DNA of 64,000 bases, taken from assembly GCF_964204645.1 (NCBI RefSeq), contig NC_134034.1:6298914-6362913 (forward strand), given 5' to 3'. Positions 18,469 through 59,444 of this stretch are shown in pieces. Made by a program: the position numbers and the translations under genes. How positions within the stretch are numbered: the stretch's first letter is position 1; the number at the start of each line of letters is the position of its first letter. This stretch comes from Tubulanus polymorphus (lineage: Eukaryota; Animalia; Nemertea). Below the pieces are notes generated by a model. It saw only the letters and a list, made by a program, of their open reading frames with translations, was not told the DNA's origin and made no database searches.

Positions 18469-19489
18469 TTAAGTTACTGCGGAGCCCCAGAAATATCTTT
18501 TTTTTTTGTTCAAAAGACCTTTCGCTTGAAAATTCTTTTGTCGGAACAAAATTTATTTCGTTCCAACCAATAATATTCTGTTCGATTGAACCAATTCGAA
18601 AAAAACGTTAGAACAAAGTCGAACAAACTTTTTTTTGTCCAAACGAAAGGATTTTTGTTCGAACAATTGTTCGATTGAACAGAATCGTTTGAATTTGATC
18701 AGAATTTTCTTTTCAGAACATTAAGTTTTTCGTTGGAACAAGTATATTGGAAAAAGTTTTTTCTCCGAACCAAAAGTATGAAGTATTTTGTTCAATCGAA
18801 CAGAATTGTTTTCATTCAAACATTCGTTCGAAAAAATTGTTTTCGCTCAACCAAATTTTTTTGCCGGGACAAAAAGTTTTTCATTTCAACAATAACATAG
18901 CTTTCAGAATGAAGAAAAGTTTTGGTTCAAACGAAAAGCGTACAAGATTTTCTTGTCGGATCATTAAGTTTTTTGGTCGAACAGCGTGTTAAGGTCGTTT
19001 TGGAAATTTACTCGGTCTGGTATATTTTGGATTACTGAGCATGTCATTTGTCAGGACATTAAACAGAAGACGACTTAGGATACTACCTAGCGTGACTCGA
19101 CTAGTTAGAACGACTTAATCCAAGATGAAGCGTCCCGTTGATTTCGGCTACAGGTTTTCGTTCAGAGATAATGCTGAGCCATTTCGGCAACCTATCATTG
19201 ATACTGTTTGCTAATAGCCTTGTTTAGTAATGGCTGATGTTGTACCTTATTAAATGCTTTGTCAAAATCATAAAGAGTAATTATCGCCTAACAGTCGATT
19301 TTCCAGAGTCAAATAGGACATCTGGTTCAGTTGTCCATGATTTCAAGAAGGTCTAATTGACTGTTTGTCGAGGTTCCTCTTATAAAACTGTATTAACCAT
19401 TGAACAGGATTCAAAGACTGTGCCGAAAACCCGTTATCGCTGCTTTACAGCTATATTTTATTTTTAATTTTAATTTTTTTATTATATAA

Positions 19490-20945
19490 ATGGATGTAGA
19501 AGGTGGAGAAGATATTGGAATGGATACTTCTGATGAACCCGGCATAACTGAAGAACAACCGCCTGATTTTAATGAAAAAAGTTTTAATGACGGTAATGAG
19601 CCAGAATATAATAATAATTTAGCAGATAGTGGTTTTAATGATAATATAATATCAACAGGCGATTTTGATAGAAGAGCTGGACGGAGATTAAATATTGAAA
19701 ATGAAAATCCAGATTTTGTAAGTATAATTTAGAATATAATGAATATATAAATAATTTTAAACCTATATTTAAAAATCTGGATATAATATAAATGATAGAG
19801 GTGCCAGATATTTAGTACAAGAATTAAAATCTTTAGATGGTGATATTACTAACATTTGAAAGATGATAATTATATTAATATCACTTACAAAAATCAAATT
19901 AAAATATTAGCAGAATCAACTTTGAGTAATTTAGAATCATCTAGAATTAAAAGAATAAGTAATAGTAATGAAATAGAAAATGTTACCGACACAGAAATAA
20001 ATCAAAATAAAAGATATTTAAACAAAGAATTAATGAATTATTTGAAATAATCAAAAATAATTTAGAAACAGAAACTTCTGAACAGAATATAACTTCGAAA
20101 ACTAGTAAACTTAAATCAAATAAAGTTCCAATTGAAAAACTTTTACCGAATGGATTACTTGACGCAACAGAACACGAATTAGAAGAATTAGATATATTTT
20201 CTGATAAAGCAATTAGAGAAATTATTAGTATAAGACTTGCATCTGATAAAATTGCGCATGATAAAAGTATAAGAGATTTTAAAATTAGAACTTTAGAAAA
20301 AGATAGAACTTATAAAATCAAAGAAATAGAACAATTGGAATTAGATAAAGATAATAAAGGTATTGAAGAAATTGAATTTAAAAAAGAAATGCATATTAAG
20401 AAAAAGAAAAAGATGATTTAGAATATAACATGGAATTTCAGAAAGAAGAAATTAAATTATAAAAAAAACCATATGATTATAATATTAATAATAGATTAAA
20501 AGTTATTTTTAAAGACTTGTTGATAAAACCAAATTCTGAAATATCATTAAAAGATAGAATAAGATTATTAACTAAGTTAGAAGCTATAACAATTCTTTCA
20601 ATTCTAACAGCTGTAACTATGCTATTTACAACAATTGGTCTAGCTATTTCAAATTCATTAAAATCTACGCCTACACCCAATAAACCGGATAAACCTCCAA
20701 GTCATAAAAATTCTATACAAGATAAAGTTAAAGATTATTTTAAAAAATTAGCAAAATATCTATGGGAACTATCTAAAAAATCTGCTGCAGCTTTACCCGG
20801 AATTATTGCATCAATTATTGGTTTGTATTAAAATCTGCAGGAAATATTCTTAGTTTTGCTGCTGAACATATTATTTTATTTTTAATTACAATTGTTAGTG
20901 CTATTATTTATGGGTTAGTGAATATGATAAAAAATGTAAAATTAA
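19490..20945 (+). pseudogene. Polinton coiled-coil protein with C-terminal hydrophobic/amphipathic helices (putative membrane-active virion protein)
   Basis: Fragmented ORF. C-terminus SLKDRIRLL..ITILSILTAVTMLFTTIGLAI..KKLAKYLWELSKKSAAALPGIIASIIG..AEHIILFLITIVSAIIYGLV. From recall, this gene type precedes the MCP in marine invertebrate Polintons. Confidence 0.6.
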
Positions 20946-20961
20946 TTTTTTTGTTAAATAA

Positions 20962-22121
20962 ATGAGTGGGAGTTATATAAATCCTTCTAAGAATTCTAGA
21001 ATATCTAATGCTATTAAAGCAGAGAGATCTCATAATATAATTACTCATAATCCTTCTAATATTAATCCTGATGATACTTTATATGTTAGAATCCCGAGAT
21101 TAAATCAAAATACTTTTTATGTTCCAAATAGTATTTATTTGATATAAATGTAACTGGTGATAATAATAATTATGTTGTAGATAATGTTGGGAGATATTTG
21201 ATTAAAAAATTAACTATAAAGATTGGACCAGAAACAGTTTTTTCATTAGATGATTATAATTCATTTATGCATTATAAAGATTTATGGTTAACAAAAGAGA
21301 AATAATATGATATTTCAAGGCATCCAAACAGAAAACCATAATAAATTAAGATCAGAAGCTAATAATGCAATAATAACTAATGCTACAGATAATTTGATAA
21401 AAAAGATTTATGGAAGCAAATATAAAATTCCATTGGACTTTGAATTGATAAATAATAATGCCCCTTTATATATAAATACGCAATTCAAGAAGATATTATA
21501 TTCGAGATAACATTTGCTCCTGTTAATGAAATTGTGCTATCTAGCGTTGTTAAAGATATGGGATATAAATTATCGAATATATGTTTAGAACATGATACAG
21601 CAACTGATGAAAATATTTCAAGCATAATTCAAACTCAATACAATCAAGGATTTTCATTATTATATGATTAACTTGATACATTTAAAACTGTAACTATTAA
21701 AGCAAATGATGAAATAATTAATGAGATTATTAACTTCCCAAGAAGATCTATTAAAGGTATATTAATATTTCTTACCATTGCAACATATTCCAATGGTGCA
21801 ATAAATGTTGATAATTATTATAATCCTGAAATATCAAAGGTAGAAATAACTATTGAAGGTATAGCAAATATAATATTTTGTCAAGGAATGAGAATTGAAA
21901 AATCATCTGAAAATTGTAATATTAATCAAATTGATTATTATACCAGCAATAAATATGCATTATGGTTAGATTTAAGAACAACAGAGGATAATTCATTACA
22001 TGGTTCTGGGAAAAAATTACAGAACACTAAAGATGGAATACAATTATTCGAGAGAAAGAAAAAAGGAGACAAAAATTTCAAAATGCACATTTATATTATA
22101 TCTGATGCGAAATTAAATTAA
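20962..22121 (+). pseudogene. Major capsid protein (double jelly-roll, hexon-like), disrupted
   Basis: Motifs IITHNPSNINPDDTLYVRIPRL, NVGRYLIKKLTIKIG, YKDLW, INFPRRSIKGILIF and KYALWLDLRTTEDNSLHGSG match the invertebrate Polinton MCP pattern from memory. Frameshifts and internal deletions present. Confidence 0.75.
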
Positions 22122-22140
22122 CGCAATTAACGATATATAA

Positions 22141-23248
22141 ATGGGGGATAAAAAAAACTCGAAATACTAAAGAACAATATTTAAAAAATTTATATTATAA
22201 CCCTGAGAGTTCGGTTGCTTATTCTTCTACCAAAAATATATGACGTCAAGTAAAACAAGATAAATTAGATAAGATAATCCCACAAAATTTAGTTAAATAT
22301 AAAGATATAAATGATTTTATGTTAGAACAACCAACAAACACAACGCATAAAAAAATGTTAGAAAATATAAAACTCGTAAAACTATGGTAAGTTATGTAGA
22401 TCAACAGTGGCAAGGAGATTTAATTGATATGAAAAATGTTAAGAAAGATAATGATGATTATTGGTGGATATTGAATATAATTGATATTTTTAGTCGTTAT
22501 GTATGGAGCTTCCTACTTTATAGAAAAGATGCTGTACAAATATCAAATGTTTTAAGAAAATTTCTTTCAGGTGGTAAAATAAAGCCAAAAAAATACAATT
22601 TCATGATGGAAAAGAATTTGATAATTCATCTGTTCATGAACTCTTGGATTATCATAATATTAAATATTTTTCAACAAAGTCGGATAAAAAAGCAGCAGTT
22701 GTTGAACGATTTAATAGAACATTAACAACAAGAATGTGGAAATATTTTACAGCGAATAATACTTTTAAATGGATTGAGGTTTTACCAAAATTGATAGAAG
22801 GTTAAAATAATTCTTATCATTCTTCTATTGGAATGAAACTTGGTTGGAATAAATTGTTTTGAATAATTTATATGGAGCATTATTTGTAGATGATTTTGGT
22901 GAACCTAAATTTAAAGTTGGTCGAAATGTTAGAATTTCTAAGTATAAAAAGATATTTGACAAAGGATACGATAGTAATTTTACTAGAGAAATATATAAAA
23001 TAAAAAAGGTGATAACAACAAAACCATATGTCTATAAATTAGAAGATTTAGATGGTGAAGAAGTTGATGGCTACTTTTACGAAGAAGAATTAAGTTTAAC
23101 TACTGAAAATCTAGAACAAGAATATAAAATTGAAAAAGTATTAAAAACAAAAACTGTTAATAGAAAAAAATATTCTTTAGTAAAATGGGTTGGATGGCCA
23201 GATAAATTCAATGAACGGATATTATCGAGTAAAATTAAAAATATATAA
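22141..23248 (+). pseudogene. Polinton retroviral-like (RVE) integrase with C-terminal chromodomain, disrupted
   Basis: QWQGDLIDM, IIDIFSRYVW, KAAVVERFNRTL, PKFKVG..VRISK, chromodomain YKIEKVL..LVKWVGWPDKFN. Confidence 0.9.
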
Positions 23249-23836
23249 ATGAATAAGGAATTATTTATATTAGAGCCTCATAATATGTTAATTTCTGGTG
23301 TAACAAATTGTGGAAAAACTTATTATTTATAAAAACTATTTTGATAATATAGTATTATTTTGTCCAACGTATGAATTTAATCAAACTTATAATAGAAATA
23401 TTACTACAAATAATAAATTTATTGTATCATATCCTAAAACAGTTAAAGAAAATTTAGATAATTGTATTAAAATAGCAATTGATATTTATAAAGGATCAAA
23501 TACATTATTTATCATAGATGATTGTGCTAATTTACATGATTCAAAAATTAGAGAGAGAGTGAATTATGTTATTTAGCTTTCTCTGGAAGACATTTTGGGA
23601 TAACAACGTGGGTTTTAAATCAAAAATATAATTCAATTGTTAAAGATTTTAGAGAAAAAATTAGATTTTTAGTATTATTCTACAATAAAGATAGAAAATC
23701 GATGAAAAATGCGCTTGAGGAAAATGATATTATTCCACATGATTTACGTAATGAATATATGGATAAATTGAAAAATAACAAAAAATCAAAATTACTATTT
23801 CGATTACAACACCCATTTAAATATGAATTCATTTAA
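23249..23836 (+). pseudogene. A32/FtsK-type genome-packaging ATPase, disrupted
   Basis: Walker A GVTNCGKT, Walker B FIIDD, SGRHFGITTWVLNQ. Start ATG abuts the integrase stop (TAAATG). Confidence 0.88.
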
Positions 23837-24015
23837 ACTCAACTAGCTTGTTAATCTAGTATATTTTAGTCACATTCTAGTCAAATCTTAGTTATTCGTA
23901 GTTGAAACAAAAATCAAATAAATTTCAACAAGAAATAAACAAAAACAATAATATTTCGACTAGCTTGTTAATCTAGTATATTTTTAGATACATTCTAGTT
24001 AAATTCTAGTTGTAA
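23836..24015. repeat. Intergenic CTAG/GAATTC-rich imperfect repeat (degenerate copy)
   Basis: Two AACTAGCTTGTTAATCTAGT..ATTCTAGTT-like units; homologous to 57981-58256. Confidence 0.7.
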
Positions 24016-24039
24016 CAACACAATTTTTTTGTTATATAA

Positions 24040-24650
24040 ATGGGAGGCGAAAAGAAAAGAAAATCTAAAAAAGTGATGTTCCAATTGAAAACCTTTGGAT
24101 GATTTAGGTATAACAGAAACAAAATTAACACCAGATAATAATGGTGCTTTAAATGATATTACTACAAACAATAATTATGAATATTATCTTTATTGTAAAC
24201 ATCACTTAGAAATATTAATTGCATCTGGGAAATGTAAAAGTTTTATTAGTAAAAATTCAACTTACAATGAAATAGATACAATGAAATCAGATGAAATTAT
24301 TAGATTATTAAAGATTTATGAAACTGCATGAATAGCTAGAATTAATGATGCGATATCAGAAAATGTAGTAAAAGGTTATAGTAAATTATGTAAATATATG
24401 CTACCAATTCAAGATGAAAATAGATTATATTCCGATTTAAAAAATGATTATTTATTTATGAATGAATTTAATAAATGGATTGGATATTAATCATTTCAAT
24501 TAGGTGGATTTATGACATAATTATCAACTGGAGTCATAACATTTTCAAATATTGAAAGTAAAAATTTTTCTATAATAAATGAGCGAGGTGGAAGAAGTGA
24601 AGGAATTAACTGTGAAGAAAAAACCAAGATCACAGAAACAAATTGAATGG
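24040..24650 (+). pseudogene. Polinton conserved protein of unknown function (homologue of 58285-58890)
   Basis: Colinear with the intact copy at 58285; one frameshift and several stops. Confidence 0.75.
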
Positions 24651-24948
24651 TCTTGGCAATTAGGAATTAAATCGAGAGAATTTAAAAAAGCTATAAAAGA
24701 AAAAATAAATAATGAAAATGTTAATGATAATGATGAAAATATTTTTATTTCTACTCCTTCTGATAATATAATATTTGATAAATATTTATATTTCACCACT
24801 GGTTTTGTAATTGTATTCATTTTGATTGGGTGTAGTTGGTATAAAAAAATCAAATAACATTTATGTTATTAATAATTCTGAAACTACTACTATCAAAAAT
24901 GAAAATACTTCTGAAATTCCAAAATTTACAATAAAAGAAATGGATTAA
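24579..24948 (+). pseudogene. Small basic protein with C-terminal hydrophobic segment (homologue of 58823)
   Basis: MSEVEEVKELTVKKKPRSQKQIEW..FTTGFVIVFILIGCSW. Confidence 0.6.
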
Positions 24949-25097
24949 TATTTTAGAAAAAAAAGCAAAAAATAATTTCATTTTTAATTAATTGAATATC
25001 TCACTACCATTGTCTATCTATGCGGAGCAATTAAATTGTCCAGATAAGTCATTTCGGATTCTTAATATTTAATTAATTTCATTATCAATTTATTTTT

Positions 25098-25423
25098 TTA
25101 ATCAACAACTTCTAAATCATGATGCCCGTCTTTATCTTTCCCATGGTAAATTATTTTAAATCCTTCTAAATCTTTTAATTCCTCTGTACTCAATGCAACC
25201 CATTTATCAGGTAAAAATACTTTAAATTCTCTCGTTGTACTAACATTACAGTAACTTAAATTTGCTGATACTTTCTCTCCATATTTAGTTTTTATATTTT
25301 CTAATTTCAATATTTTGTGTTCAATTTCTTTTGTAACATCGACTAACTTTTTTATTTCAAATTGTTTTTTGCTGGTTTTATTTTGTTATTTATTGTTGCT
25401 AAGAATGCTTTTCTATCTCCCAT
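25098..25423 (-). pseudogene. Terminal small Polinton protein (one frameshift); fold unknown, possibly OB-fold ssDNA-binding
   Basis: Starts at TAATAAATG (25423). KYGEKV..FKVFLPDKW..IIYHGKDKDGHHDLEV. Homologous to 31686-32027. Confidence 0.6.
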
Positions 25424-25508
25424 TTATTAAAAGAAAAAATTACTTGTGGTGATGAGTGGTGTGTCGCCCTCTCGCCCTCTGGTATGGAAACGTCATTTTC
25501 CAATTACT
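25421..25508 (-). repeat. Polinton right terminal inverted repeat (internally collapsed)
   Basis: Reverse complement AGTAATTGGAAAATGACG..GAGAGGGCGACACACCACTCATCACCACAAGTAATTTTTT..TAAATG aligns to 50941-51000 plus 51242-51280. Confidence 0.8.
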
Positions 25509-28500
25509 TGTTGAGATTCATTTGATATTTTTGTAATCTGGACAGAAGCCTTATTAATCAATCTTGGCAGTTTGTAACTCAGATGTGTATTAATATCCAT
25601 AAATTGGCAACGTAGTTTAAATCTTAAACTGAACATATCCAATTATCAAAACTGATTTCACTACAATTCATTTAAAAGTAAACTCTCTAAAACAAAGAAG
25701 ATTTTTTATTATCTCGGATATTTGCCAAGTCACATGGAAGGTTTGTATGTTTGTGTAATGAAATATTATGTGTCTTTTTATATACGGTAAAAACGGTAAC
25801 GTAATTTACGAGTATTTCATTGACAAAGAAAAAGTAATGCTAGAATAAAGGTCAATGCGAAAACTTTTATTTCAGACTTATGACGTAATTTTTCCATGTG
25901 AATTCCACCAAGAGACGGCCTGGACCAGCTTCCAACACGTTTTCTCTTTGTATAGGTACATAGCAAACATCGATAAAACTCTTGACATGCCATTTTGCTG
26001 ATGTATCCAAAATTTGAATAGCCACAAAATCTTTGTTTAACATGTAAAGCTAAATAAGGTATCATTGTTTTCAGAATTCATCTGGCGGTTTTAATAAAAA
26101 CATCCTTTCATGTATATTGTTAAAAATGTAGGCACACAGTAAGCCGGAAGTTCGATGACGTGATTTTCTCCAATTGGTGCCTATTCCTGTGGAATGGGCC
26201 AACATAACCACGTGCGCGTACGATGAGGGGAACAAATTCAAATACAAAGACTTTATATAACCAATTCCGCGATCATAAAGAATCGCTACAATCTTTTCCT
26301 CCGTTATCCCCATTTGATGATTCTTTGTCCAACATTATCCAAAAAGGAATATCCACTAAGTATGCAAATATACAAAATGAATTGTAAGAAGTGAATGTTT
26401 ACTTTTCTTGCTAGACTTAAAATGATAAAATCAGACAATGTTATACCAGGTCATAAGAAAATCCTACTAAATTAATAATGTATGTTAAGCCAACCATGGA
26501 ACCATTGAAAAAAAACCAAAATAGTATGCATGTTGCGTCATGAACATCATCATATAGATCAATGATGGACGTATTAGTTTATAATACGTCCATGATAGTT
26601 AAAGACAGTGTAGGGTCTATCATCCATCACAAGCGGGCTTATGCTTTTACTTACTAAATTTTGAGGCTACGACTACAATTTACTAATTTCAAAACGTCAA
26701 ACAAATTGACAGTTCGTTTAATTTTAAAAACTTCTTAAACCAAACCAGCTTCCATGAAACTATTTAAAATAACGGTGTGTACCGTATTTAAATCAATTAA
26801 TTTTGTATGCACCGTATTAGGACCAACTCGCAGTTCAACGGCAAAGGGCCCAAATTTTCTAGGGCTAATTTATGCAGTAAGGAATTTTACCTTAAAGGGT
26901 TATAATCTCACAAGTTGATTTGGGCACAGGAATTGCAATTATTTTCTGTAGTACCCAGCTAGACTGTGAGTCACAGGAAATTAGTGCTTTATGCTTAAAG
27001 TGGTCATGAAGAGGTTTTTGAGTTATGGCTAAAAGTATTTTCTTTCATCAATTGTAAACTATTTATTGATTTAGTGGTCAAGAAATTAATTTTTAATTCT
27101 TCAATTAGTGTTAAAACGAAACTTTTGATCGGCCGTGCTGATTCCTTCCCAAACCGGAAGTGTGACGTCATTCTGAGAACCCAGACCAAAGCAACATGGT
27201 GTAGTGTATAGAATCGGGTGTTACTAACAGCGATTAAAGTGCAAAATAGTGACCCAAATACATCAGATTCCAATCAAACGTCTGAATTTAGGAAGTCAAC
27301 AGTTGTTATTAATAGACAGTCGAAATTATTCAATTTAATTTGGACCTGATGCCTCAGAACGAAGGGATTTGTGACTATAGAACAGCATATTTCTACGTCG
27401 TGGAGCAGCGAGCATTCATCATCATTTAAGTGATTCCCTCTTTGTTAAAACTACGCCGAGGGGATGACTGATATAGATATCGCAAATATTTCTGTGGGTA
27501 GTTAAACCGTTGTTATACGCTTGCTTTAATAGCGGGGATAATTTCAGACACTAGCTACAGTTTATGCACATAGGTTGATAGGTTCATAAAATAGGCCTAA
27601 CTTTTGAAATTTTATTTTTATCCAACTGCAGGTTTGGATGACTTTTTAAGCTCAATTACCCAATAGGTCTCACGTAGCATAAAAAGGGAATCCGAATCGC
27701 CATCAGGGACCAGGGAGGATGCCCGAGTAAAAGTCCCGTGCCCCAAAATGTACAGTATGGGGCATAATTTTCCCGTCTGGTTAGAGCGTTTTGAGAGCTA
27801 CTGCACATTGTCCGGTGTATGTAGCAGTGAGCTTAAGAAACAACATTTACTAACGTACCTGGACCACGAGTCATACCAGGCGTAAACCTACGTCTTGCCC
27901 CATCCCTGGATTACAATAGTTTCGTTAAGGGGATAAAGGACCGTATGTCATTGACACGGTCAGCTTCCGATTTCAAAATGATGTTGAAATCTCGAGAGCA
28001 GAAACCCCAAGAAAACATCGGGCAATACGCGGATGCATTGACAACTCACACAGAGCGCGTGCCCAGGGATTGATCACAGTTTGCAGGATGAGTTGGCACG
28101 TGACCAATTCTTGGCAGGTGTGGCGGTACCCTCGAGTGTTAGGGAGCAGTTGTACAGTCTCTATCGGTGTCATTGGCTCGGGGTCATGAGACTGCGCGGC
28201 TCCTGACTGATAGACACGAGTCCAGACCCCTCGTCGACACGTAAATGAGGTGAAGGCCAGTCAGACGGATGAGCTACTTTCGGAACTCGTGGGCCTCGTT
28301 AAGGGTTTGAATGTCCGGATGGACGGTTTAGAGGCCAGGGTTAACACACAGACTCAGGCCAACTCCCAGGGGAGGGGAGGGACAACATATGCTGGCGGTG
28401 TCGAGAACCGGTTCATACAGCGGAAACATGTCCGCAGGTTGCATGTCATACATGTTCTGGTAGAGGTCATTATGCCAGGAATTGCCCCGGGAAATAGGGA

Positions 28501-30289
28501 AACGATTACAGGCGGTCCTCCAGGGTGCAAGGGAATCGCCGCCAATAGAGAGATCCTCCACATATATGATGGAGAAATATCTGCCTCCACATCGTAGAAT
28601 CCGGAAACATGTTCCTTCACCCGTTAACGATTCCTTACATGATAGAGCCCAAATTGTAAATAATTTAATAATTGTAAATAGTTCACTAGACCCTTGCGTA
28701 ACGGAAATTGGGAACGAAATTTTTGGTGGAACCGATACGACAGGTCGTACATATCTAGAAAAGCAGGCAACTTCAAATGTTTTAACTTTTTACCCAGATA
28801 CCTCACTGTCGGTCGGTCAACCGGGTGATGGGATTTCGGATGGTTCTCCTCTGAGGCAGGTGACAGTTTTAAATATTTTACCTCCGTGCCCAGATAACTC
28901 TCTGTTGATAAAGTCACAGGAAGGTAGGTCGTAACCACAATAACAACTGACCAGCGAGATGCGTCAATAGGTCCGAGCTGCGCCGTGGATGAGAAAATGG
29001 TCCGTCGTGTCGATTTGAGAGACACTGGGCTTTACTGCTCTGGTATTCTTAATGGTTCAACACGTACGTCTATACTCTTAGACACTGGTGCTTCTGTGAC
29101 TTTGTTGAAAACCTCTGGGAGAAAAGTCGTAGGACCGATCAGGGAAATCTGCTGCCAGTCGACTTCGAATTAGCCACTGCCACGAGTGAGAACATGAAGG
29201 TTAATGGGGTGGCCAAGGTAGAGCTCCAGTTGAGAACCTGTAGATTCATGGTCCCCATGCTAATAGCCGATGACTTGGCTCAGGAGTGCCTGCTAGGTAG
29301 TGACTTCTTTGAACAGAATGGTTGCATTATTGATTACCCTGGTAGAGTTCTCGAGTATGGCCTTACCCATGTACCATTGGAGACCAAGGATGCACGACCT
29401 AGTTGCTGTCGTTTGTTCCTGACCGAGACTTGTTATATTCCGGGAGGCCATGAGGTCGCGGCCACTGCGTATTTCAATCAGATATATAGTGTAAATAACA
29501 ATTTTGTTGGTATGGTTGGTCGAGGGAACAGTACTCTGTGCCTGGCTGGCAAATCTCTGGTATGTCCGCGGGATGGGAAGGTAACAGTTCGCCTGGCGAA
29601 TTTTTCAGATGACACCCTTAGGGTCCGTCGAGGGGACTTTGTGGGTATTTTCTCGCCTATCGAATCAGTCGATGTACTCACTGTGCAAGACACTTCTGGT
29701 TTGTCAGATACGGAACTGCCTCAGCCCCAGCAGGATCCCCATGATTTAAAGGGTCTTTACGACGAACTAAATGTCGATAGTCTCGAGATTTCGGAGGGTG
29801 ATCGGGAGGATTTGAAGAGGGTCCTAGCGCAGTATCAGGGTGTATTTTCTCGGGGAATTTGAAATTGGGAGGACACCCCTCATTAAGTTTGAGATCGATA
29901 CCGGGGAGCAGAAGCCGATTAGGCAGCATCAACGACGTCTGCCGCCCCATTACAAGCAATTTGTTGAGGGGTACACTGCAGAGCTGTGTGACCAAGGTCT
30001 TATAAGGCCATCCCACTCGCCTTGGGCTAGCCCAATCGTCCTAGCCAAGAAAAGTGATGGCAGTTTGTGTCTGTGCTGTGACTACAGGAAATTAAACGAC
30101 GTCACAACTAAAGACAGTCAGTCACCCATTGGGGCGAATAGATTCTACCCTCGAGGCACTTTCGGGATCGTCATGGTTCTCCTCTCGGGATCTGACCAGT
30201 GGCTACTGGCAAGTGCTAATCCAAGAATGTGACAAACCAAAAACAGCTTTTTGTTCTGAGAATGGAGTTCCACCTAAAATCCAAATTAT

Positions 30290-30545
30290 TTCATAATTTT
30301 GTTGATCACTACTTGGCGTATAATAATCTGATAATTTTAATTTCTTTTTTTTTAAACAGTTTTAGATTAATTTCTTTATTTGTTACTGCGTTATATAAAC
30401 TCATAGCTTCATCGACTGATTGAAAATCTTCCCATTTTAAATACTTTTTTCAATACCAATATATATATAATGTATAACCAACAGTTCCAACTGATAGTAA
30501 TGCTCTATTATATAAACCAGTTATTATCCACTTATTATCACTCAT
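30290..30545 (-). pseudogene. Small Polinton ORF with hydrophobic N-terminus
   Basis: TAATAAATG start; MSDKWIITGLYNRALLSVGTVGYTLYIYWY, then stops. Confidence 0.45.
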
Positions 30546-30549
30546 TTAT

Positions 30550-30906
30550 TAATCAAAAAGATTACCATCTACAAAATATTTAGTTAACTAAGTTATAATT
30601 ATTTCAACATTTATTTCATCACTACTTTTATGATTATCATATATTTCAGTTACTAATTTTTTTAACATCATCGATAATCTAATCTTCATCTAATTCATAA
30701 AATCTTGAAGACTCTTTAATTAAATCAGTAATCTTTTCTACATTAAAAGTTTTTTTATCGATTGTTGTTTCATATTCAAATGTTATTTCATTAAAAAATG
30801 TAATATTTTTGATATGAGTTATTACATCATTAATGTTAAATTTCATTTCTTTCTCACGTTTAAAATCCAATCCAAAACATATACTCGGTCCAACAGTTAT
30901 ATTCAT
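30550..30906 (-). pseudogene. Small acidic Polinton ORF of unknown function
   Basis: TATATAAATG start; 75-aa ORF that appears to read on past a stop at 30679. Confidence 0.45.
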
Positions 30907-30922
30907 TTATATAATGAAAAAT

Positions 30923-31671
30923 TTATTCATTACATCTTATAACTAATTCATAAATTACAGGATAGTTATTTAAATCAATTAAGTATCCATTATGATTTCT
31001 TATTTCTAATTTAAAATTATTAAATTTTGGAATGCATGGCTTGAAATCACACTCAGCTAAATTATAATCTATTTGCGTTCCAAATTGTTTAACATTTTTT
31101 TAGGGTAAAATATTTAATATACTAGAATTAAAAATTGTATCTTTAGTTGCTTCGAAAGTTTTTGTTGGGTCAATTAAATTGCAATAAATATAAAAGTGTG
31201 TAAAAGGTATTTGAGCTACCTTCTGCGTTTCCAGTAAATATGCGGTTTAATTCCTAACATTTTAGCTATTGGTTTGTTTACCATAAATTTATTTTGTACA
31301 GTAGATAACTTTATTCTTATTTGATTAGAACTATCAATTTTGATAAATTTAATTCCAAATTCATCAGTACTCCCGATTTTCAACCGAGCTCTTCTATTAA
31401 TTTCCTGCGCTAATGATTCTAAATTATATAATCCTGCTTTCAAAAATAGATGAAACCATTTATTCTTATTTCTCATATAAATTTCAAAACCTCAAAGTTC
31501 GAAAGTTTTATCCGATATATTATAAAAAAAATTACATAAACTTACATTTACTAATTTTAAATCTACACAATTCTCAAATTCTCTATCTAATTGTACTAGT
31601 AAATTATGAGATTTAGAATTTAATAGTTTTCTAGAATCAACGTATATTCTATATTTTTTTAATTCTACCAT
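30923..31671 (-). pseudogene. Minor capsid protein (penton, single jelly-roll), disrupted
   Basis: MVELKKYRIYVDSRKLL..LVQLDREFENCV..NFFYNI..LKAGLYNLESL..HFYIYCNLI..SSILNI..FKLEIRNHNGYLIDLNNYPVIYELVI, the pattern typical of Polinton/virophage/NCLDV pentons. Confidence 0.7.
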
Positions 31672-31685
31672 TTATTTTACATATT

Positions 31686-32027
31686 TTATTCGAAATCTAT
31701 TTCATGGTGCCCTTTTTCATTCTTACCTTTATATATGAAATAGAAATCACCTGAACATAATTCTTCTAAATCTTCACTTGATAATCTATGAAATCTATCT
31801 GGTAAATATGCTCTGAATTTATATTTATTTCCTTTTAATCCTTCATATTCTAAATGGAAAACTAATTTATCTCCATATTTGTTAGAAACTGTATCAATAG
31901 TAGTAATTAAATATTTCTTATGAATTGTTAGTTCATTTAACTTCTTAAATTTATAATCTACTGATTTGACATTTGTAGTATCTTTTATTCTATTTAAGAA
32001 TTCACTGTGTATTTGTTTACTCTCTAT
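31686..32027 (-). pseudogene. Terminal small Polinton protein, homologue of 25098-25423
   Basis: Manual translation: FLNRIK..FKKLNEL..KYGDKLVFHL..FRAYLPDRFHRLSSEDLEEL..FIYKGKNEK.HHEIDFE. Start codon decayed, so it is absent from the ORF track. Confidence 0.65.

Positions 32028-48192: not shown

Positions 48193-48279
<87 letters not shown>
48193..48279. repeat. (TA)n microsatellite
   Basis: Pure AT dinucleotide run. Confidence 0.98.
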
Positions 48280-48281
<2 letters not shown>

Positions 48282-50345: not shown

Positions 50346-50379
50346 GTAAGCGGAGTAATAAAATCATAATGGAAGATAA

Positions 50380-50680
50380 CATATTAGTTTTCAAATTGAA
50401 TAATTTGCCGACCTTTCAATGCTTTGTGAACTTAATTTTTTTTAACCAAAATGAGTTTTATTCAATTTTATTCAATATAAAACTTAATTATCAATATTAA
50501 GTTTTCAAATTGAATATATCGTAATTTGAGACCTTTTAATGCTTTGTGAACTGAACTTTTTAACCAAAATGAGTTTTATTCAATTTTATTCAATATAAAA
50601 CTTAATTATCAATATTAGTTTTCAAATTGAATATATCGTAATTTGAGACCTTTTAATGTTTTGTGAACTTGATTTTTTTT
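50380..50680 (+). repeat. ~116-bp AT-rich tandem repeat (~2.6 copies)
   Basis: GTTTTCAAATTGAA at ~50386, 50501 and 50618. Confidence 0.85.
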
Positions 50681-50940
50681 AAACAACATTAACAAAGTAA
50701 ACAAAACCACACAAAGCGTCATGATGTCATTATGGTGGTAACATGAATACAAAATTATGAATTTCTATGCAATAAAGAAAACAATTTTGGTTTGAAATTA
50801 CAATACTAACTAATACTAATATTAACCTGGTTTTTGCTTTGCTCTGGTTTCTGTAAACTTTATTGAAGTGTAGGATTAGGTATGTGTGAAGTTTATTTAA
50901 CTCGGCCACATGGCTGGGTCTACTTACATGTTGAGGAGCA

Positions 50941-51280
50941 AGTAATTAGAAGATGGTGTTTTCAGATCAGAGGTCGAGAGGTCGAGACACCACTCATCAC
51001 AGCTAGGCTCTAGTGAGAACGGACGATTGCTCTGTGACACACATATACAGTGAGTGCGCGTAACAGCAGCTGCGCGTGGATAGATCGATACAGTGAGTCT
51101 CTACTGAGAACGGTTATTAACGCGTGTGCTATTACTGTAGTACAGTGATTGCGTGTCAACTGTACCCAGATAAATAGATGCTGTGAGGCTTGGGTGAGAA
51201 CGGTTAATAGCGTGCTTGTTATATACAAGGGGAAGTAATCCCCACTCATCACCACAAGTAAATTTTTTTCCTTATAAATG
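50941..51280 (+). repeat. Polinton left terminal inverted repeat (~340 bp)
   Basis: Aligns to the reverse complement of 25421-25508. Internal direct repeats CCACTCATCAC (50990, 51242) and TGAGAACGG x3. Confidence 0.8.
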
Positions 51281-54200
51281 GAAGAGAATAAGACAGAATA
51301 AATTGATGTTAATGAAAATCAATATCATTGTCCATATTGTAAAAAATACATTGATAAATCTCAAAAATCGCGTCATGAAAAGTCTTCAAATCATATAAAA
51401 AATGTAATAGATTTTGAAACTCCAGAAAATTCCAATGAAAGAAAAGAACGATTAGAAAATATGAATGTGGATGAAATAAAATGTGAAGTTTGTAATGAAT
51501 TTATAGTAAAAAGGAATTATAATAGACATCTCGAATCACAAAAACACCATCAAAATTTGAGTAATAATGTTTTAGGAAAAGATTATTTCGATGATAAACC
51601 TCAAAAAGTAAAAAAACCAACTTCAAAAACTAAATCCATTTCAAATAAACCTTACATGGAAAATGTTAGAAATTATATTGATTCACTAGAAATAAAAGAT
51701 ACAATTGAAATTTTAGAAACATTACATAGTAAAATTGGTCCTGCAGCTATTATATTTAGATTCTTTAAAGGTACAACAATAGAAGATTATAGTAAATTTA
51801 ATGAAATAATAGAAAAAATACTAGATTTGATAACAGATGTTGAATATCCAAAAATTAGTATCTCTGGGAAAGTAAGTTTTATAAAGTCAGAAGAAAAAAT
51901 GAATTATAATATTCAAACACACTCTGAAGAAATAATTTCAAAAACACAAATAAAAGAGAAGTTAGAAAAAATATTTAATGGATTTAAACGTCATATTGAA
52001 AAAAGATATTTTGAGGGTTCTGGCTTAACATTGAATGAAATTATATTTTTAGATTTAAATATTTATAATACAAAAAGAAATAAAACATCAAAAAGTAAAA
52101 CAATGTTTAAAAATGATTCAAACTTTACAACAGAAAAGGATATTAAAGCATCATCTTATATTAAATTACCATTTACGACAAAAGCAGTAATAAATATTCA
52201 AAATGAAGATAATAAATGTTTTCTATGGTCAATTATTAGTTGCTTACATCCAACACAGGAAAATGTTCGTAGAATAACAGATTATCGGAAATATGAAACA
52301 TTATATAAAATTGATCAATATCCAGTAACTATAAAAATGATACCCAAAATAGAAAAAATTAATAAGTTAAAAATAAATATATTCGAATTAATGCAATTAC
52401 CAAAGACAAAAGGTGAAAATATTAAAGATTATACATTGGAAGCTTTATATTTAACAGAATATTATGATGATGAAATTGCTATAGATTTGTTATATTACAA
52501 AAAAAATGAAAATGAACATTATATGTGGTTAAAACAAATTGATTTATTCTTTAGAACAGAAAGTGATTTTAACAGCCATAAAATTTATCTATGTAGAAAA
52601 TTTAGAACTGAGAATGCGTTACTAAAACATAAAGAATTATGTGATAATAAAGATTTTTGTAAATTAATAATGCCAACAGAAAAAGATTATAAATTGAAAT
52701 TTACTAATCATAAATTTAAGAATATTGTTCCATTTGTAATTTATGGGGATTTTGAATCGTTGAATAAAGAATTAACTGATCAAGATAGAAAAGAAATATA
52801 TAACAAAAAGCAATTATTAAAATCAATGGATAAAGGAAATGAATTAAATGAAGACACAATACAAGACCCACCAATTATAAATACAATTAAAAAAGTTCAT
52901 CAAAGAGCTGATGCTTATGGAATTTACATCAAATCAAATTATCCCGAATTATATGAAAGTCAATATATTTCTTTTAGAGGTGAAAATGTAGTTAATGATT
53001 TTTGTGACAAAATGATTGAATTAGAAAGTGATTTTGCAAAATTATTAAACAAAAATAAAAGAATAGTTATGACAAAAGAAGATGAAATTGATTTTAATTA
53101 TGCAACTCATTGTTGTTATTGTGAAAAACGTTTTTATTCATTTGATAAAAAAGTTAGAGATCATAATCATTTAAATTCAAAATATCGTGGAGCTGCTCAT
53201 GAAGATTGTAATTTACAAGCTAAGAAAGTTAATTTCGTACCAATATTATTTCATAATTTATCAGGCTATGATACCCATCTATTTATAAAACAATTATCGG
53301 GAAAATTTGGGGCAATTAATCAAGAAATAGAAGAATATAATGTTATGAATGGTACAAATGTAAGAAAATATGATTTTAAACTATTAGCTAAGACATCTGA
53401 AAATTATATTTCATTTCAATTTGGTTGCATTAGATTTTTAGATTCTTATAGATTTCTAGCAAGTTCATTAGATAATTTATCAAAAAGTTTAGTTGATAAT
53501 GATTTTGTTATAACTCGATATTATTATCCAAATGAACAAGATTTTAAATTATTGAGATATAAAGGCGCAATTCCTTATTCATTTTATAAAACACATGATG
53601 ATTTTAATGTAACAAAATTATTAAAAGATCAATTTTATGATCAATTAAAAGAGGAGTATGTGAAAGATGAAGTGTTTTATAGAACATTAAATATTTGGAA
53701 CCATTTTAAGATGAAAAATCATGGTGAATTAGTTGATTTATATTTAAAATCAGATGTTATGATATTGGCTGACATATTTGAAAAATTTAGAGAAGTTAAT
53801 TTGAATAATTTTAATGTTGATCCTTGTTATTGCTACTCTAGTCCTGGTTTAACCTGGCAATGTGGTTCAAAATATACAAATGTAGAATTAGATTTATTAA
53901 AAGAACCAGACATGGTTTTATTATTTGAAAAATCAATTAGAGGTGGAATTAGTGGTGTTATGGGAGATAGGTATTTTAAAGCAAATGATGAATATAAATT
54001 ATTATATATTGACGCCAATAATTTATATGGTTGGGCAATGATGCAACCTCAACCATATAAAAATTTTATATTAACAGAAGTTGAAAAAAATAACAAAACT
54101 GATTGGGAAAGCGCAATTGCGAGTATAAAAGATGAAGCACCAATTGGTTATTTCTTTGTAGTTGATTTAGAATATCCTGAAAATATAAAGTTTAAAACAA

Positions 54201-56327
54201 GAAACTTACCTTATTGCCCAGAACATTTAACTGTAGATGATAGTTATTTAAGTGAATACCAGAAGAAAATAAAACCGAAAGATCATGTTTTTACAGAAAA
54301 ATTAATACTTACTCAAAATAATAAATACAATCATATTGTTCATTATAGAATGTTAAAATTTTATCTAAAACAAGGAATGAAATTAAAGAAAGTACATAGA
54401 TATATTGAATTTAATCAATCGAAGTGGTTAGAAAAATATATAGATTTCAATACTCAACAGAGAACCATATCAAAAACAGATTTTGAAAAAGATTTCTTCA
54501 AATTAATGAATAATAGTTTTTATGGTAAAACATGTGAAAATATTAGAAATAGAAATGATATTGAATTAGTAAATAATTCTGAAAGATTAAGACATTTACA
54601 ATCAAGTCCTAGACATTTAGGAAATAAAAGATTTGAATATTATTTAACAGCAGTTAAATTAAAAAGAACATCAATGAAATTTAATAAACCTATATTTATT
54701 GGTTCGACTGTTTTAGAAGTATCAAAATTATTAATGTATGATTTTTATTATAATGTTTTACAACCACTTTTTGGGGAAAAGCATATTGAAATATTATATT
54801 TTGATTCTGTAACAGCTGACACCCCAATATTATTAAAATGTAATGATAAAATATTGATAAGAAGAATTTCAGAAATAATTCCAAAACAAAATGAATGTTA
54901 TATTTCATATGGAGAAAAAGAATTAATACAAATAAATGGTTTAATGGATGTTTGGACAAGAAATGGATGGAAAAAATTAAAGAATATTATTAGGCATAAA
55001 ACAAATAAGAAAATCTATAGAGTTAGAACTAAATTAGGATTTGTAGATGTTACAGAAGATCATAGTTTAATTAAACGAAATGGTGATGAAATAAAACCAA
55101 CTGATATAAAAATTGGAGATGAATTATTACATAAAAGATTTTTCCAAAGAATGAATCATATGTCATTTGATGAAATTATTGATAATATTTATAATATAGA
55201 ACCCGAAACATTAGAAGAAAAAGAATATTTTATCAAAGGATTTTTCATGGGTGATGGTTCAGCAGGTGTGTATAATTATGTTTGGGGTAATAAATATTGT
55301 TGGTATTTATGTAATCAAGACTTAAAATTATTATAAAGAATTAAGAAATTCTGTGAAGAAGTTTATTCACGTAAAACATTTAGAATCATGGATCATATGA
55401 AATCATCAGCAGTTTATAGAATACTTGTAAATAATCCTAAAGATTTTGCTATAAAATATAATGATGAATTCTATATTCATGCAATAGTGAAAAGTAATAC
55501 TTCAACTAAAGAAAAGATAGTACCAGATTATGTATTAAATGCAAAAAATAATTTAAGAAAGTGGTTCTTCATTGGATTCTATGCCGCAGATGGCACTAAA
55601 AAATTTGCAAAGGAAAAAAGATAACATTTGCACAGAAAGGAAAAGTTGCTATATCAGGATTAAATATATTATGCAGTTCATTAGGATTTAATATGAATAT
55701 AGAATTAATTAAATCTAAACCAAATTGTTTTAATTTAAGGCATGTAGAAAAAGAATTAACAGAAGAAGTTAAAGATTTATTTGAAATATATAACCCAACA
55801 GATTATGTTTATGATTTATCAACAGATGATGGAACATTCAATTCTGGGTTCCCATTAATCCAAAAAAAATACCGACAGTTACATACTAAAAATCAAGACA
55901 AATGACATAACAAAAGACTTAAAAACATTAAAACATCATTTTGATTTTAGCAATTATCCCAAAGATCATGAACTATTTAGCAATGATAAAAAAAAAGATT
56001 CCTGGTAAATTTAAAGATGAATTAGGGGGTGATGAAATGATTGAATTTGTTGGGATAAGAAGTAAAATGTATAGTTATAGAACAAAAGATCATGAAGCTA
56101 AAAAGTTAAAAGGAATAACAAAACATGTGGTTGATAAACATATAGAATTTCAAGATTATATAAAGTGTTTATATAAATCAATTGTAATGAAACACAAAAT
56201 GAATTGTTTAAGGTCAGAAGATCACGAGATGTACATTAATGAAGTTGAAAAAACTAGTTTAAATCCATTTGATGATAAAAGGCATATTTCAGATGATGGT
56301 ATAAAAACATTACCTTAAGGCCATTAA
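51278..56327 (+). pseudogene. Protein-primed family B DNA polymerase (Polinton type) with N-terminal C2H2 fingers, OTU-like region, EndoVII-like insert and an intein
   Basis: In-frame ATG at 51278 (stop at 51299). CPYC..H..H and CEVC..H..H fingers; NKCFLWS..HYMW; Exo I YGDFES; CCYC..VRDHNH..AAHEDCN; Exo II FHNLSGYD; Exo III YLKSDV; Pol YIDANNLYG, KLMNNSFYGK, YFD/[intein]/TDS, GKFKDE, KKLKGI, DDKR. Stops at 51299, 55334 and 56316; frameshifts in A-runs at ~55620, 55862-55869 and 55988-55996. Confidence 0.95.
54806..55870 (+). mobile_element. Intein with LAGLIDADG homing endonuclease (~355 aa) inserted in PolB motif C
   Basis: Block A SVTADTPIL directly after YFD; block B DVTEDHSL; LAGLIDADG-type FIKGFFMGDGS and FFIGFYAADGT; block F YVYDLSTDDGTF; block G LIQKN followed by extein TDSYI (after removing one A from the A8 run). 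Confidence 0.93.
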
Positions 56328-56560
56328 AACATAAAATCAATATCATCATACTCGAAATCACTATTGGCTTCTTCATTTTCATTTAATTGTTCAGGTTCTT
56401 CTTCAATTTCATTTTTCTCATTTAAATAAAGTTCTATCTTGTTCCACATTTCATCTCGCTCTCTTTGTTTCTTTTTGTTTGTTAATTCATCAAATGGAAT
56501 TATAATATCTATGTTTAAATAATTTACAATCTTATTTAAAAAGAATTCATAATTTATTGA
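56324..56560 (-). pseudogene. C-terminal remnant of a poxvirus late transcription factor 3 (VLTF3/A2)-like protein
   Basis: Open 78-residue frame SINYEFFLNKIVNYLNIDIIIPFDELTNKKKQRERDEMWNKIELYL..., resembling the VLTF3 C-terminal NY.F.L.KI...W motif (from recall). 5' part lost at the deletion junction. Confidence 0.6.
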
Positions 56561-56561
56561 A

Positions 56562-57371
56562 TATTGGTGGTTATTGAATATAATTGATATTTTTAGTCGT
56601 TATGTATGGAGTTTCCCACTTTATAGAAAAGATGCTGTACAAACATCAAATGTTTTAAGAAAATTTCTTTCGGATGATAAACTAAAACCAGAAAAAATAC
56701 AATTTGATGATGGAAAAGAGTTTGATAATTCACTTGTTCATGAACTTTTAGATAATCATAATATTAATTATTTTTCAACAAAATCAGATAAAAAAGCAGC
56801 AGTTGTTGAACGATTTAATAGAACATTAAGAACAAGAATGTGGAAATATTTTACAGCAAATAATACTTTTAAATGGATTGATGTTTTACCAAAATTGATA
56901 GAAGGATATAATAATTCTTATCATTCTTCTATTGGAATGAAACCTATTGATGCTAGAAAACCTGAAAATGCTGAAATTGTTTGGAATAATTTATATGGAG
57001 CATTTCTTGTAGATGATTTTGGTGAACCTAAATTTAAAGTTGGTCAAAATGTTAGAATTTCTAAGTATAAAAAGATATTTGATAAAGGATACGATCGAAA
57101 TTTTACTAGAGAAATATATAAAATAAAAAAGGTAATAACAACAAAACCATATGTCTATAAATTAGAAGATTTAGATGGTGAAGAAGTTGATGGCTACTTT
57201 TACGAAGAAGAATTAAGTTTAACTACTGAAAATCTAGAACAAGAATATAAAATTGAAAAAGTATTAAAAACAAAAACTGTTAATAGAAAAAAATATTCTT
57301 TAGTAAAATGGGTTGGATGGCCAGATAAATTCAATGAATGGATATTATCAAGTAAAATTAAAAATATATAA
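56562..57371 (+). pseudogene. Polinton integrase with chromodomain, N-terminally truncated
   Basis: IIDIFSRY, IQFDDGKEF, KAAVVERFNRTL, YNNSYHSSIGMKP, chromodomain LVKWVGWPDKFNEWI. Confidence 0.92.
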
Positions 57372-57980
57372 ATGAATAAGGAATTATTTATATTTGAGCC
57401 TCATAATATGTTAATTTCTGGCGTAACAAATTGTGGAAAAACTTATTTTATATTAAATTTATTAGAAACTGTTTATGAAAACTATTTTGATAATATAGTA
57501 TTATTTTGTCCAACATATGAATTTAATCAAACTTATGATAGAAATATTACTAGAAATAATAAATTTATTATATTAGATCCTAAAACAGTAAAAGAAAATT
57601 TAGATAATTGTATAAAAATAGCAATTGATATTTATAAAGGATCAAATACATTATTTATCATAGATGATTGTGCTAATCTACATGATTCAAAAGTTTGAGA
57701 AAGTGAGTTATGTTATCTAGCTTTCTCTGGGAGACATTTTGGGATAACAACGTGGGTTTTAAATCAAAAATATAATTCAATTGTTAAAGATTTTAGAGAA
57801 AACATTAGATTTCTAGTTTTATTCTACAATAAAGATAGAAAATCGATGAAAAATGCACTTGAGGAAAATGATATTATTCCACATGATTTACATAATGAAT
57901 ATATGGATAAGTTGAAAAATATTAAAAGATCAAAATAACTATTTAGATTACAACACCCATTTAAATATGAATTTATTTAA
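57372..57980 (+). pseudogene. A32/FtsK-type packaging ATPase (single premature TGA at 57696)
   Basis: GVTNCGKT, LFIIDDC, SGRHFGITTWVLNQKY; the frame continues to TAA at 57978-57980. Confidence 0.9.
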
Positions 57981-58256
57981 ATTCAACTGGCTTGTTAATC
58001 TAGTTGAATTCTAGTTACATTCTTGTTGAATTCTAGTTATTAGTAGTTGGAACAAAAATCAACTAGATTTATCAATATTTTAACTAGCTTTTTAATCTAG
58101 TTTAATTCTAGTTACATTCTAGTTGAATTCTAGTTATTGGTAGTTGGAACAAAAATCAACTAGATTTAACAAGAAATAAACAAAAACAACAATATTTCAA
58201 CTAGCTTGCTAATCTAGTTGAATTCTAGTTACATTCTAGTTGAATTCTAGTTGCAA
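57981..58256. repeat. Intergenic array of CTAG/GAATTC palindromic repeats
   Basis: Three units AACTAGCTTG.TAATCTAGTTGAATTCTAGTTACATTCTAGTTGAATTCTAGTT. Confidence 0.85.
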
Positions 58257-58284
58257 CAACACAACTAATTTATTTGTTATATAA

Positions 58285-58890
58285 ATGGGAGGTGAAAAGA
58301 AAATAAAATCTAAAAATGGTGATGTTCCAATTGAAAAAACTTTAGATGATTTAGGAATAACAGAAAACAAATTAATTCCAGATGATGGTGCTTTAAATAA
58401 TGTTACAACAAATAATAATTATGAATATTATCTTTATTGTAAACATCAATTAGAAATATTAATAGCATCTGGAAAATGTAAAAATTTTGTCGGTAAAAAT
58501 TTAACTTACAATGAATTAGATACAATGAAATCAGATGAAATTATTAGATTATTTAAAATTTATGAAGCCGCGAGAACAGCTAGAATTAATGACGCGATAT
58601 CAGAAAATGTAGTAAAGGGTTATAGTAAATTATGTAATTATATACTACCAATTGAAGATGAAAATAGATTATATTCCGATTTAAAAAATGACTATTTAGT
58701 TATGACTGAATTAAATAAATGGATTGGATATTTATCATTTAAATTAGGCGGATTTATGACATTATTATCAACTGGGGTAATAACATTTTCAAATATTGAA
58801 AGTAAAAATATTTCTATAATAAATGAGCGAGGTGGAAGAAGTGAAGGAATTAACTGTGAAGAAAAAACCGAGATCACAGAAACAAATTAA
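58285..58890 (+). CDS. Polinton conserved protein of unknown function (201 aa, intact ORF)
   Basis: TATATAAATG start, open frame, homologue at 24040. Confidence 0.75.
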   Translation: MGGEKKIKSKNGDVPIEKTLDDLGITENKLIPDDGALNNVTTNNNYEYYLYCKHQLEILIASGKCKNFVGKNLTYNELDTMKSDEIIRLFKIYEAARTARINDAISENVVKGYSKLCNYILPIEDENRLYSDLKNDYLVMTELNKWIGYLSFKLGGFMTLLSTGVITFSNIESKNISIINERGGRSEGINCEEKTEITETN

Positions 58891-59190
58891 ATGGTCTCGG
58901 CAATTAGGAATTAAATCACAAGAATATAAAAAAGCTGTAAAAGAAAAAATAAGTAATAAAAATGTTAATAAAATAGTGAAAATATTGTTATTTCTACTCC
59001 TTCTGATAATAGAATATTTGATAAATATTTATATTTTACAGTTGGATTTGTAATTGTATTCATTTTGATTGGGTGTAATTGGTATAAGAAATCAAATAAA
59101 ATTCACGATATTAATAATTCTGAAACAACTGCTATTAAAAATGAAAGTACTTCTGAAATTCCAAAATTGACAATAAAAAAAATGGATTAA
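58823..59190 (+). pseudogene. Small basic/hydrophobic Polinton ORF, frameshifted
   Basis: Homologue of 24579. Confidence 0.6.
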
Positions 59191-59444
59191 TATTTTAGAA
59201 AAAAAGCAAAAAAAAATAATTTTTTTTAATTAATTGAATATTAATTGAATATCTCACTACTTTTGTCTATCACTGTGTGGGTGCCGTTTATGGCACCATC
59301 TATGCGGAGCAATTAAATTGTCCAGATAAGTCATTTCGGATTCTAGATATTCATTATTTTTATTAATTTATTTTTTTAAATTTAATCAACTAATTATAAA
59401 CATTTTTAAGACTAGATGAGTAACAAAAAGAGTAACAAAAAACA

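Follow-up and report, generated by a model that had tools for sequence, protein, structure and literature searches.

A Polinton family with a poxvirus-late-type start signal in a genomic window of Tubulanus polymorphus

Could a Polinton residing in the chromosomes of a probable animal depend on a cytoplasmic virus for its transcription? This question is raised by a stretch of 64,000 nucleotides of Tubulanus polymorphus DNA (contig NC_134034.1, positions 6,298,914 to 6,362,913; hereafter the window), a repeat-rich eukaryotic sequence in which three decayed AT-rich islands of 22-25% GC are embedded, i.e., fragments A, C, and B. The element to which they belong is a Maverick/Polinton, as it has a protein-primed DNA polymerase of family B (pPolB), an rve integrase, an A32 ATPase, a double jelly-roll capsid, and terminal inverted repeats (TIRs). 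An earlier note on this DNA had proposed a Polinton dependent on a poxvirus or another nucleocytoplasmic large DNA virus (NCLDV) as a helper, and had treated a uniform ATAAATG start motif, a VLTF3-like factor, and an NCLDV-like intein as three independent pointers to it. We give an even chance to the reading that the element, a multi-copy Polinton that integrates, is transcribed by an RNA polymerase of the poxvirus type from an as yet unfound helper virus. The promoter argument has become stronger than it was in the earlier note, whereas no helper has been found and the three features no longer count as independent, since VLTF3 in Polintons has already been published and the intein belongs to a clade of the Polintons' own.

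The start signal of the element genes

The genes of the element begin at a signal consisting of a T-tract and TAAATG. In the window, ATAAATG is present at all 14 gene starts that could be placed, against 5.8% of the other ATGs in the three blocks. Since these starts had been listed with the motif already known, an unbiased test was run on the first ATG of every non-nested open reading frame (ORF) of at least 120 amino acids in 17 related metagenome contigs (20-44% GC), which were found with a capsid profile. TAA-ATG was present at 55 of the 63 ORF starts against a background of 6.4%, a sample size that overstates independence because some of the 17 contigs are near-duplicates. In the same set, T was found at -12 in 89% and at -13 in 70% of the cases, i.e., at the ninth and tenth position upstream of TAAAT, and A at -18 in 76%. 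Furthermore, the start codons lie only 19-30 nt apart in six of eight divergent gene pairs. The uniform start motif of the earlier note was borne out; the upstream T now forms part of it, and it lies in short back-to-back spacers.

The TAA doubles as the stop codon of an upstream ORF in only 3/61 cases; at the integrase-ATPase junction it is used in this way. The motif is retained at higher GC content (7/9 starts in L015-L017, with 36-44% GC), and the motif-bearing relatives have capsids only 52-59% identical to that of L011, a related contig with intact capsid and integrase genes. The signal is rare in L008, a distant element that is equally AT-rich (1/9 starts), and it was found neither in a sister group with homologous genes (0/7 starts) nor in more distant capsid relatives (0/5). 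Two sets of distant pPolB loci gave 10/90 (five of them in L007) and 6/18. L007, a pPolB element of 9034 bp with another type of ATPase, has TAA-ATG at all five of its long ORFs, and L041 has it at five of 11. Further Polinton lineages may therefore carry this signal as well.

According to a review, vaccinia late promoters have TAAAT followed by G over the start codon and a conserved T ten nt upstream (PMC11980589). Judged by sequence, the start signal of the element has the same layout within one base, its upstream-T peak lying one base nearer than the vaccinia T as worded in that review. In vaccinia, poly(A) leaders are described as arising by slippage at TAAAT-type initiators, and a like initiator is reported for yeast cytoplasmic elements (PMC6211774). 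For African swine fever virus (ASFV), TATA and not TAAAT is given as the late initiator (PMC7163114).

Fragments, families, and gene content

The features of the three fragments, in window positions, are as follows.

19471-25508 (+): fragment A, GC 0.24, recognized by blastn to B and by the adjoining satellite; left end truncated against the satellite, right end at the TIR
19490..20932 (+): broken gene with start ATAAATG and, by hydropathy, hydrophobic segments near the C-terminus
20962..22121 (+): major capsid protein (MCP) gene, with 51-67% identity to P0131 of L011
22141..23248 (+): broken integrase of the retroviral type whose C-terminus carries a chromodomain (Pfam rve E 1e-4, Chromo E 2.5e-3, neither reaching the cut-off)
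23249..23836 (+): broken gene for a packaging ATPase of the A32 type, whose pieces share 70-86% identity with the ATPase of L011
24040..24950 (+): two overlapping ORFs with starts at 24040 and 24579, conserved in relatives
25101..25423 (-): terminal ORF with its start inside the TIR, sharing 69% identity with the ORF that comes first in L011
25416..25508 (-): short form of the right TIR, with AGT as its first letters; matches 50939-51000 and 51242-51285 at 84-86%
30290-32090 (-): fragment C, sister family, gene order as that of the homologs in L011
(-): genes of fragment C, i.e., a terminal-ORF homolog, a penton-like ORF (start 31671), and two to three small ORFs (starts 30906, 30545)
50941 to ~59380: fragment B, comprising TIR, pPolB with intein, VLTF3-like remnant, and integrase-to-ORF block
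50941..51277 (+): left TIR, long form, begins AGT; contains the promoter-like motif of pPolB
51278..56318 (+): pPolB gene (Pfam DNA_pol_B_2 E 3.7e-19), colinear with the intact P0001
54806..55870 (+): intein in pPolB motif C with two LAGLIDADG motifs, broken in the B copy
56327..56557 (-): C-terminal remnant of the VLTF3-like gene, cut by the deletion that joins it to the integrase
56558..59380 (+): integrase remnant, ATPase, and two ORFs (Pfam rve, Chromo, Pox_A32), the second copy of the block in A

A and B represent one multi-copy family and C a sister family, which agrees with the earlier note. The integrase-to-ORF block is 87-90% identical between A and B (blastn), and the TIR is common to both, whereas blastn and tblastx of C against A and B gave no match. 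In B, the TIR is followed by pPolB with its intein, the convergent VLTF3-like remnant, the deletion, integrase, ATPase, and two ORFs; in A, a membrane-type gene is followed by MCP, integrase, ATPase, two ORFs, the convergent terminal ORF, and the TIR. The gene order that had been reconstructed from these pieces holds inside A and inside B, but across the gap no single order holds: L011, a natural contig, combines genes of C with genes of A and arranges them in another order.

Each of the three pieces is damaged by stops, frameshifts, or deletions, no copy in the window retains both ends, and the window copies are dead. In pPolB, a frameshift at the 5' end is followed by a stop at 55334 and further frameshifts downstream. 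The family as a whole is abundant. In one independent genomic run with the same species label (1.9 Gb read), the depth over 50800-59300 was ~190-900 reads, corresponding to ~40-400 copies if a genome size of 0.2-2 Gb is assumed, and most element reads were at least 90% identical. The element terminus could be placed with the same reads, of which 502 with unlike flanks stop at 50941, and ~320 reads skip ~250 nt inside the TIR, consistent with the short form found in A, which contains the promoter-like motif of the terminal ORF. Two small runs with the same species label yielded one 31-letter piece each and are uninformative on expression; a look for RNA runs containing the element brought up none.

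The first gene of A probably encodes a membrane protein, to judge by its sequence; its product is 46-76% identical in pieces to a 485-amino acid ORF of L011. The integrase of the window (rve E 4e-7, just under the cut-off, with chromodomain) is 76% identical to the intact gene of L011, and the ATPase scores above the cut-off of Pfam Pox_A32 (E 3.8e-7). The earlier note had reported no RNA polymerase gene in the fragments, and a Pfam scan of 34 window ORFs, in which no RNA polymerase family was matched, upheld this. Neither was a subunit found by Pfam among 22 and 19 ORFs of related loci, all of which are partial, and no capsid maturation cysteine protease was seen in the window ORFs or in the relatives covered by the Pfam scans, again partial. 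A 442-amino acid ORF of the relatives gave no usable Atlas match, and an Rfam search of 19000-60000 matched no family. In both copies, the stretch that separates the ATPase from the following ORF contains short direct repeats built from 11-bp subunits (23839-24011 and 57982-58252), which are expanded in B.

The structure model of P0131, the intact MCP relative in L011, is predicted to be a double jelly roll: it aligns with the capsid chain of Paramecium bursaria chlorella virus 1 (PBCV-1) over 339 residues (Z 23.3, rmsd 4.2) and has structure matches in BFVD. The Z-scores with Sputnik (17.4) and mavirus (16.2) are lower than those with PBCV-1 and faustovirus. The capsid profile had no significant match among the ORFs of capsid size in L041 and L001, two further pPolB loci. 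Scans of viral contigs with the window pPolB and integrase and with the capsid and VLTF3-like profiles yielded no confirmed relatives. A cluster of capsid relatives with 53% identity, P0137, is filed under Bartonella assemblies on contigs of 0.5-1.6 kb, probably as contamination from host or vector. The earlier note had the penton supplied by the sister family, and a candidate gene is indeed present in C, and only there. Its support is weak: aligned identity with similar ORFs of other loci is 16-28%, and the sole PDB match is PBCV-1 P1v1 (E 0.47).

The VLTF3-like gene and the intein

The VLTF3-like remnant matches Pfam Pox_VLTF3 over ~45 residues with 22.3 bits (E 1.2e-4), i.e., below the cut-off of 25, and is 58% identical to P0199, a protein whose model resembles those of VLTF3 proteins. 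When the remnant served as query, a word-indexed search returned nothing. A full HMMER search returned two relatives, zinc-finger proteins of 697 and 446 amino acids, neither of which matches Pfam VLTF3 as a whole protein. The last ORF of L011 is its VLTF3-like gene and starts at the motif as well; the 697-amino acid relative resembles it at the beginning. The structure model of the VLTF3-like protein has a mean pLDDT of 42, with ~70 in a helical domain. In BFVD, it has two matches with E below 0.001, VLTF3-type proteins of a marseillevirus and an entomopoxvirus, and further matches to VLTF3 entries of pox-, mimi-, pandora-, and pithoviruses; a PDB-wide fold search gave only small helical matches with Z of at most 6.2. 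The model thus backs a VLTF3 fold but not a donor lineage. VLTF3 was already published for a subgroup of Polintons in a study of coral polintoviruses (PMC11131425). What remains of the VLTF3-like factor of the earlier note is a fold found in many giant-virus groups, which is not pox-specific.

LAGLIDADG inteins are expected to start with Ser or Cys, to contain TxxH and endonuclease motifs, and to end with Asn followed by Thr, Ser, or Cys at +1. All of these were found in the insertion at motif C of pPolB, which starts with Ser, contains TEDH and two LAGLIDADG motifs, and ends with Asn. It is 62% identical to the intein of P0001 over 273 residues. In the independent run, 60 reads skip exactly its 1065 nt, and its depth is ~55% of that of the flanks. 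Empty and filled alleles thus coexist in the host species, possibly in different subfamilies. None of 42 other loci, 18 of which were picked by pPolB, carries this intein.

Among the best 120 matches of the intein, the closest are five other pPolBs, and the rest are mostly RNA-primed family B polymerases or topoisomerases. In a tree of 41 rows (the window intein and its first 40 full-length BLAST matches), made with a quick method and with an untested root, a branch whose SH-aLRT support is 100% sets the five pPolB inteins apart from the rest. This tree places the window intein in a clade common to Polinton polymerases. P0006, a pPolB whose extein has no BLAST match to that of P0001, has an intein that is 46% identical at the same site, an apparent transfer between polymerase types. 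Homing endonuclease inserts in pPolBs have been suggested to stem from intein invasions (PMC11161782). The inteins of giant-virus family B polymerases share with that of the element the motif C site, the Ser start, TEDH, two LAGLIDADG motifs, and the Asn end, with 40-42% identity. However, the host polymerase is protein-primed in the element, and the Polinton inteins, including that of the P0006-type polymerase, form a clade of their own. Two of the nearest RNA-primed carriers sit in giant-virus metagenome bins, and by its sequence the intein would record contact with giant viruses at some time. The intein of the earlier note is thus a real one of the LAGLIDADG type, which groups with other Polinton inteins.

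A possible helper dependence, its alternatives, and known systems

If the element is read by the polymerase of a helper, transcription would start inside the AAA of the signal and, as in vaccinia, a poly(A) leader would arise by slippage. Copying would be done by the element's pPolB, packaging by its own capsid and ATPase, and insertion by its own integrase, while the VLTF3-like protein might tune or redirect the late machinery of the helper. Because the VLTF3-like and polymerase genes bear the same signal, there would be no separate early class, and the first round of expression would need the helper. Either a true poxvirus or some other cytoplasmic element that has this initiator could be the helper. 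Homing would carry the intein from one Polinton polymerase to another. There is precedent for parts of such a scheme. Mavirus-like elements are described as sharing the late promoter of a giant virus, with a chromosomal copy that wakes on infection (PMC10945749), and Polinton-like viruses (PLVs) as being present in the occlusion bodies of entomopoxviruses (PMC11296320). A deoxynucleoside kinase gene in two close relatives (L011:10343-10981 and L016:2898-3377, both (-)) was counted in favor of helper dependence.

Several observations weigh against it. Among 120 viral loci picked by the back-to-back promoter pattern, in a scan that covered 7/64 parts of the viral collection, no multi-gene contig was dominated by the motif, which was present at 80/669 starts. 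Since the nearest giant-virus carriers of the intein do not use TAAATG (0/21 and 1/7 starts), the intein gives no hint as to whose promoter this is; 84 loci like these contigs have it at 126/1176 starts. The likeness of the VLTF3-like protein to VLTF3 in sequence is weak (hhalign E 0.11) and its model poor overall (pLDDT 42). At the upstream T, the layout deviates from that of vaccinia by one base, and the vaccinia side of the comparison is the description in a review rather than a side-by-side count. The motif cannot name the helper, because it is short and AT-rich and a like initiator is described in yeast cytoplasmic elements (PMC6211774). The related contigs, which are partial, include near-duplicates, and lack host flanks, do not prove that the element has no RNA polymerase gene. 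How a cytoplasmic polymerase would gain access to a chromosomal copy is unexplained, and transcription itself is deduced from a motif.

The most serious competitor, which we nevertheless consider somewhat improbable, is an autonomous nuclear element: guided by the VLTF3-like zinc-finger protein that the element encodes, the RNA polymerase II of the host would read a promoter peculiar to the element, which merely looks like that of a poxvirus. Amplification to many chromosomal copies fits such an element, as do the extra zinc fingers of the VLTF3-like protein and its distance from viral VLTF3 in sequence, and helper-free replication is described for some PLVs (PMC10945749). However, the VLTF3-like and pPolB genes bear the signal of the capsid genes, which leaves no obvious early gene for the host to read, and the divergent spacers of 19-30 nt are too short for two conventional core promoters with leaders. 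In addition, T at -3 is a poor context for translation initiation in animals, unless a slipped poly(A) leader replaces this T, which would relieve the problem.

We regard it as unlikely that the motif is a relic, left by an ancestor that depended on a helper in a different host (a protist or a symbiont, for instance) before it entered this genome, with the copies owing their spread to host read-through or a past epidemic and no helper infecting this animal at present. The nearest non-Polinton relatives of the intein in giant-virus metagenome bins, the close relatives on metagenome contigs without host flanks, and the broken state of all three window pieces are compatible with a relic. Yet the copies are recent, as most reads are at least 90% identical, and the motif is intact in two diverged window families and in relatives with capsids 52-59% identical, which argues for selection up to insertion. 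Hardly credible and largely refuted is a motif that arose as a by-product of AT-richness, stop-start packing, or translation context without bearing on transcription: the elements are ~76% AT and the integrase-ATPase junction uses the TAA as a stop, but the background is 6%, relatives with 36-44% GC keep the motif (7/9) where the AT-rich L008 hardly has it (1/9), stop-start cases are few (3/61), and a T is conserved at a distance upstream.

Already known are Polintons themselves, the presence of VLTF3 in some of them, virophage life-styles, and PLVs associated with poxviruses. Mavericks/Polintons (Polintoviricetes), as described for 'adintoviruses' (PMC8502044) and coral polintoviruses (PMC11131425), have the same pPolB, rve integrase, A32 ATPase, capsid fold, and TIRs, occur in many chromosomal copies, and include VLTF3 in a subgroup. 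The element differs in its uniform poxvirus-late-type start and the full LAGLIDADG intein at motif C, in that no capsid protease was seen in its partial loci, and in a capsid without significant profile match to two pPolB loci. With mavirus/EMALE04 of Cafeteria, as described in PMC10945749, it shares integration, pPolB, rve, the absence of a visible RNA polymerase, and apparently the use of one helper-type late promoter motif. The motif itself is different, the host here is probably an animal, and the helper, reactivation, and protection are shown for mavirus, whereas the element is known from sequence. Its modeled capsid ranks nearer to PBCV-1 and faustovirus than to Sputnik and mavirus by Z, and a virophage type is not established.

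The entomopoxvirus PLVs are likewise Polinton-related and proposed parasites of poxviruses in animals, but they were found with the virus and are described as encoding a protease and a tyrosine recombinase or no known integrase, in contrast to the rve integrase found here (PMC11296320); the main text of that paper does not contain the words 'promoter', 'TAAAT', 'VLTF', or 'intein'. The same TAAAT over the start codon and an upstream T are described for the late promoters of vaccinia (PMC11980589) and for the initiator of pGKL (PMC6211774), in genomes that encode the polymerase reading them; the start sites of the element are predicted ones. In a mostly open-access literature, no description was found of either the pox-type promoter layout or a motif C intein in animal Polintons. 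It is unusual for a multi-copy family in the chromosomes of a probable animal to have an intein of which both empty and filled alleles exist.

The dependence on a helper bears on how animal Polintons are transcribed and whether any of them needs one. If true, the element would serve as a marker of a still unseen pox-type virus in a group of invertebrates, and the life-style of mavirus would extend to animals. In its boldest form, which we hold only tentatively, the elements would be poxvirus virophages endogenous to an invertebrate other than an insect, as Polintons that lie silent until the late machinery of an undiscovered pox-type virus wakes them, redirect this machinery with their own VLTF3-like protein, possibly protect their host, and carry an intein that homes within the animal genome. 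The antiviral defence suggested in the earlier note found no support in the analysis.

Other repeats surround the fragments. Fragment A adjoins a higher-order satellite (1-19470) with units of ~3.3-3.7 kb, which consist of 31-bp arrays, 155-bp repeats, and unique parts and are mutually 95-99% identical. The motif CCACCAGGGGGCGC of the 155-bp repeat, which we take to resemble a CTCF site, has 14 matches at no more than two mismatches, where 0.04 would be expected; they lie at 917-1659, 4183-4937, 7924-8677, 15303-16041, and 40647-40660. A CTCF site would be in keeping with a bilaterian, and this motif and the types of transposons in the window both suggest that the host is an animal. Fragment C is flanked by pieces of the pol gene of a long terminal repeat (LTR) retrotransposon (28200-33000), which are reverse transcriptase-like on the left and integrase on the right. 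Pieces of other transposons encode an OTU protease-like protein (39244-39942), a MULE transposase (43358-43771), and a pipsqueak helix-turn-helix domain (63050-63475).

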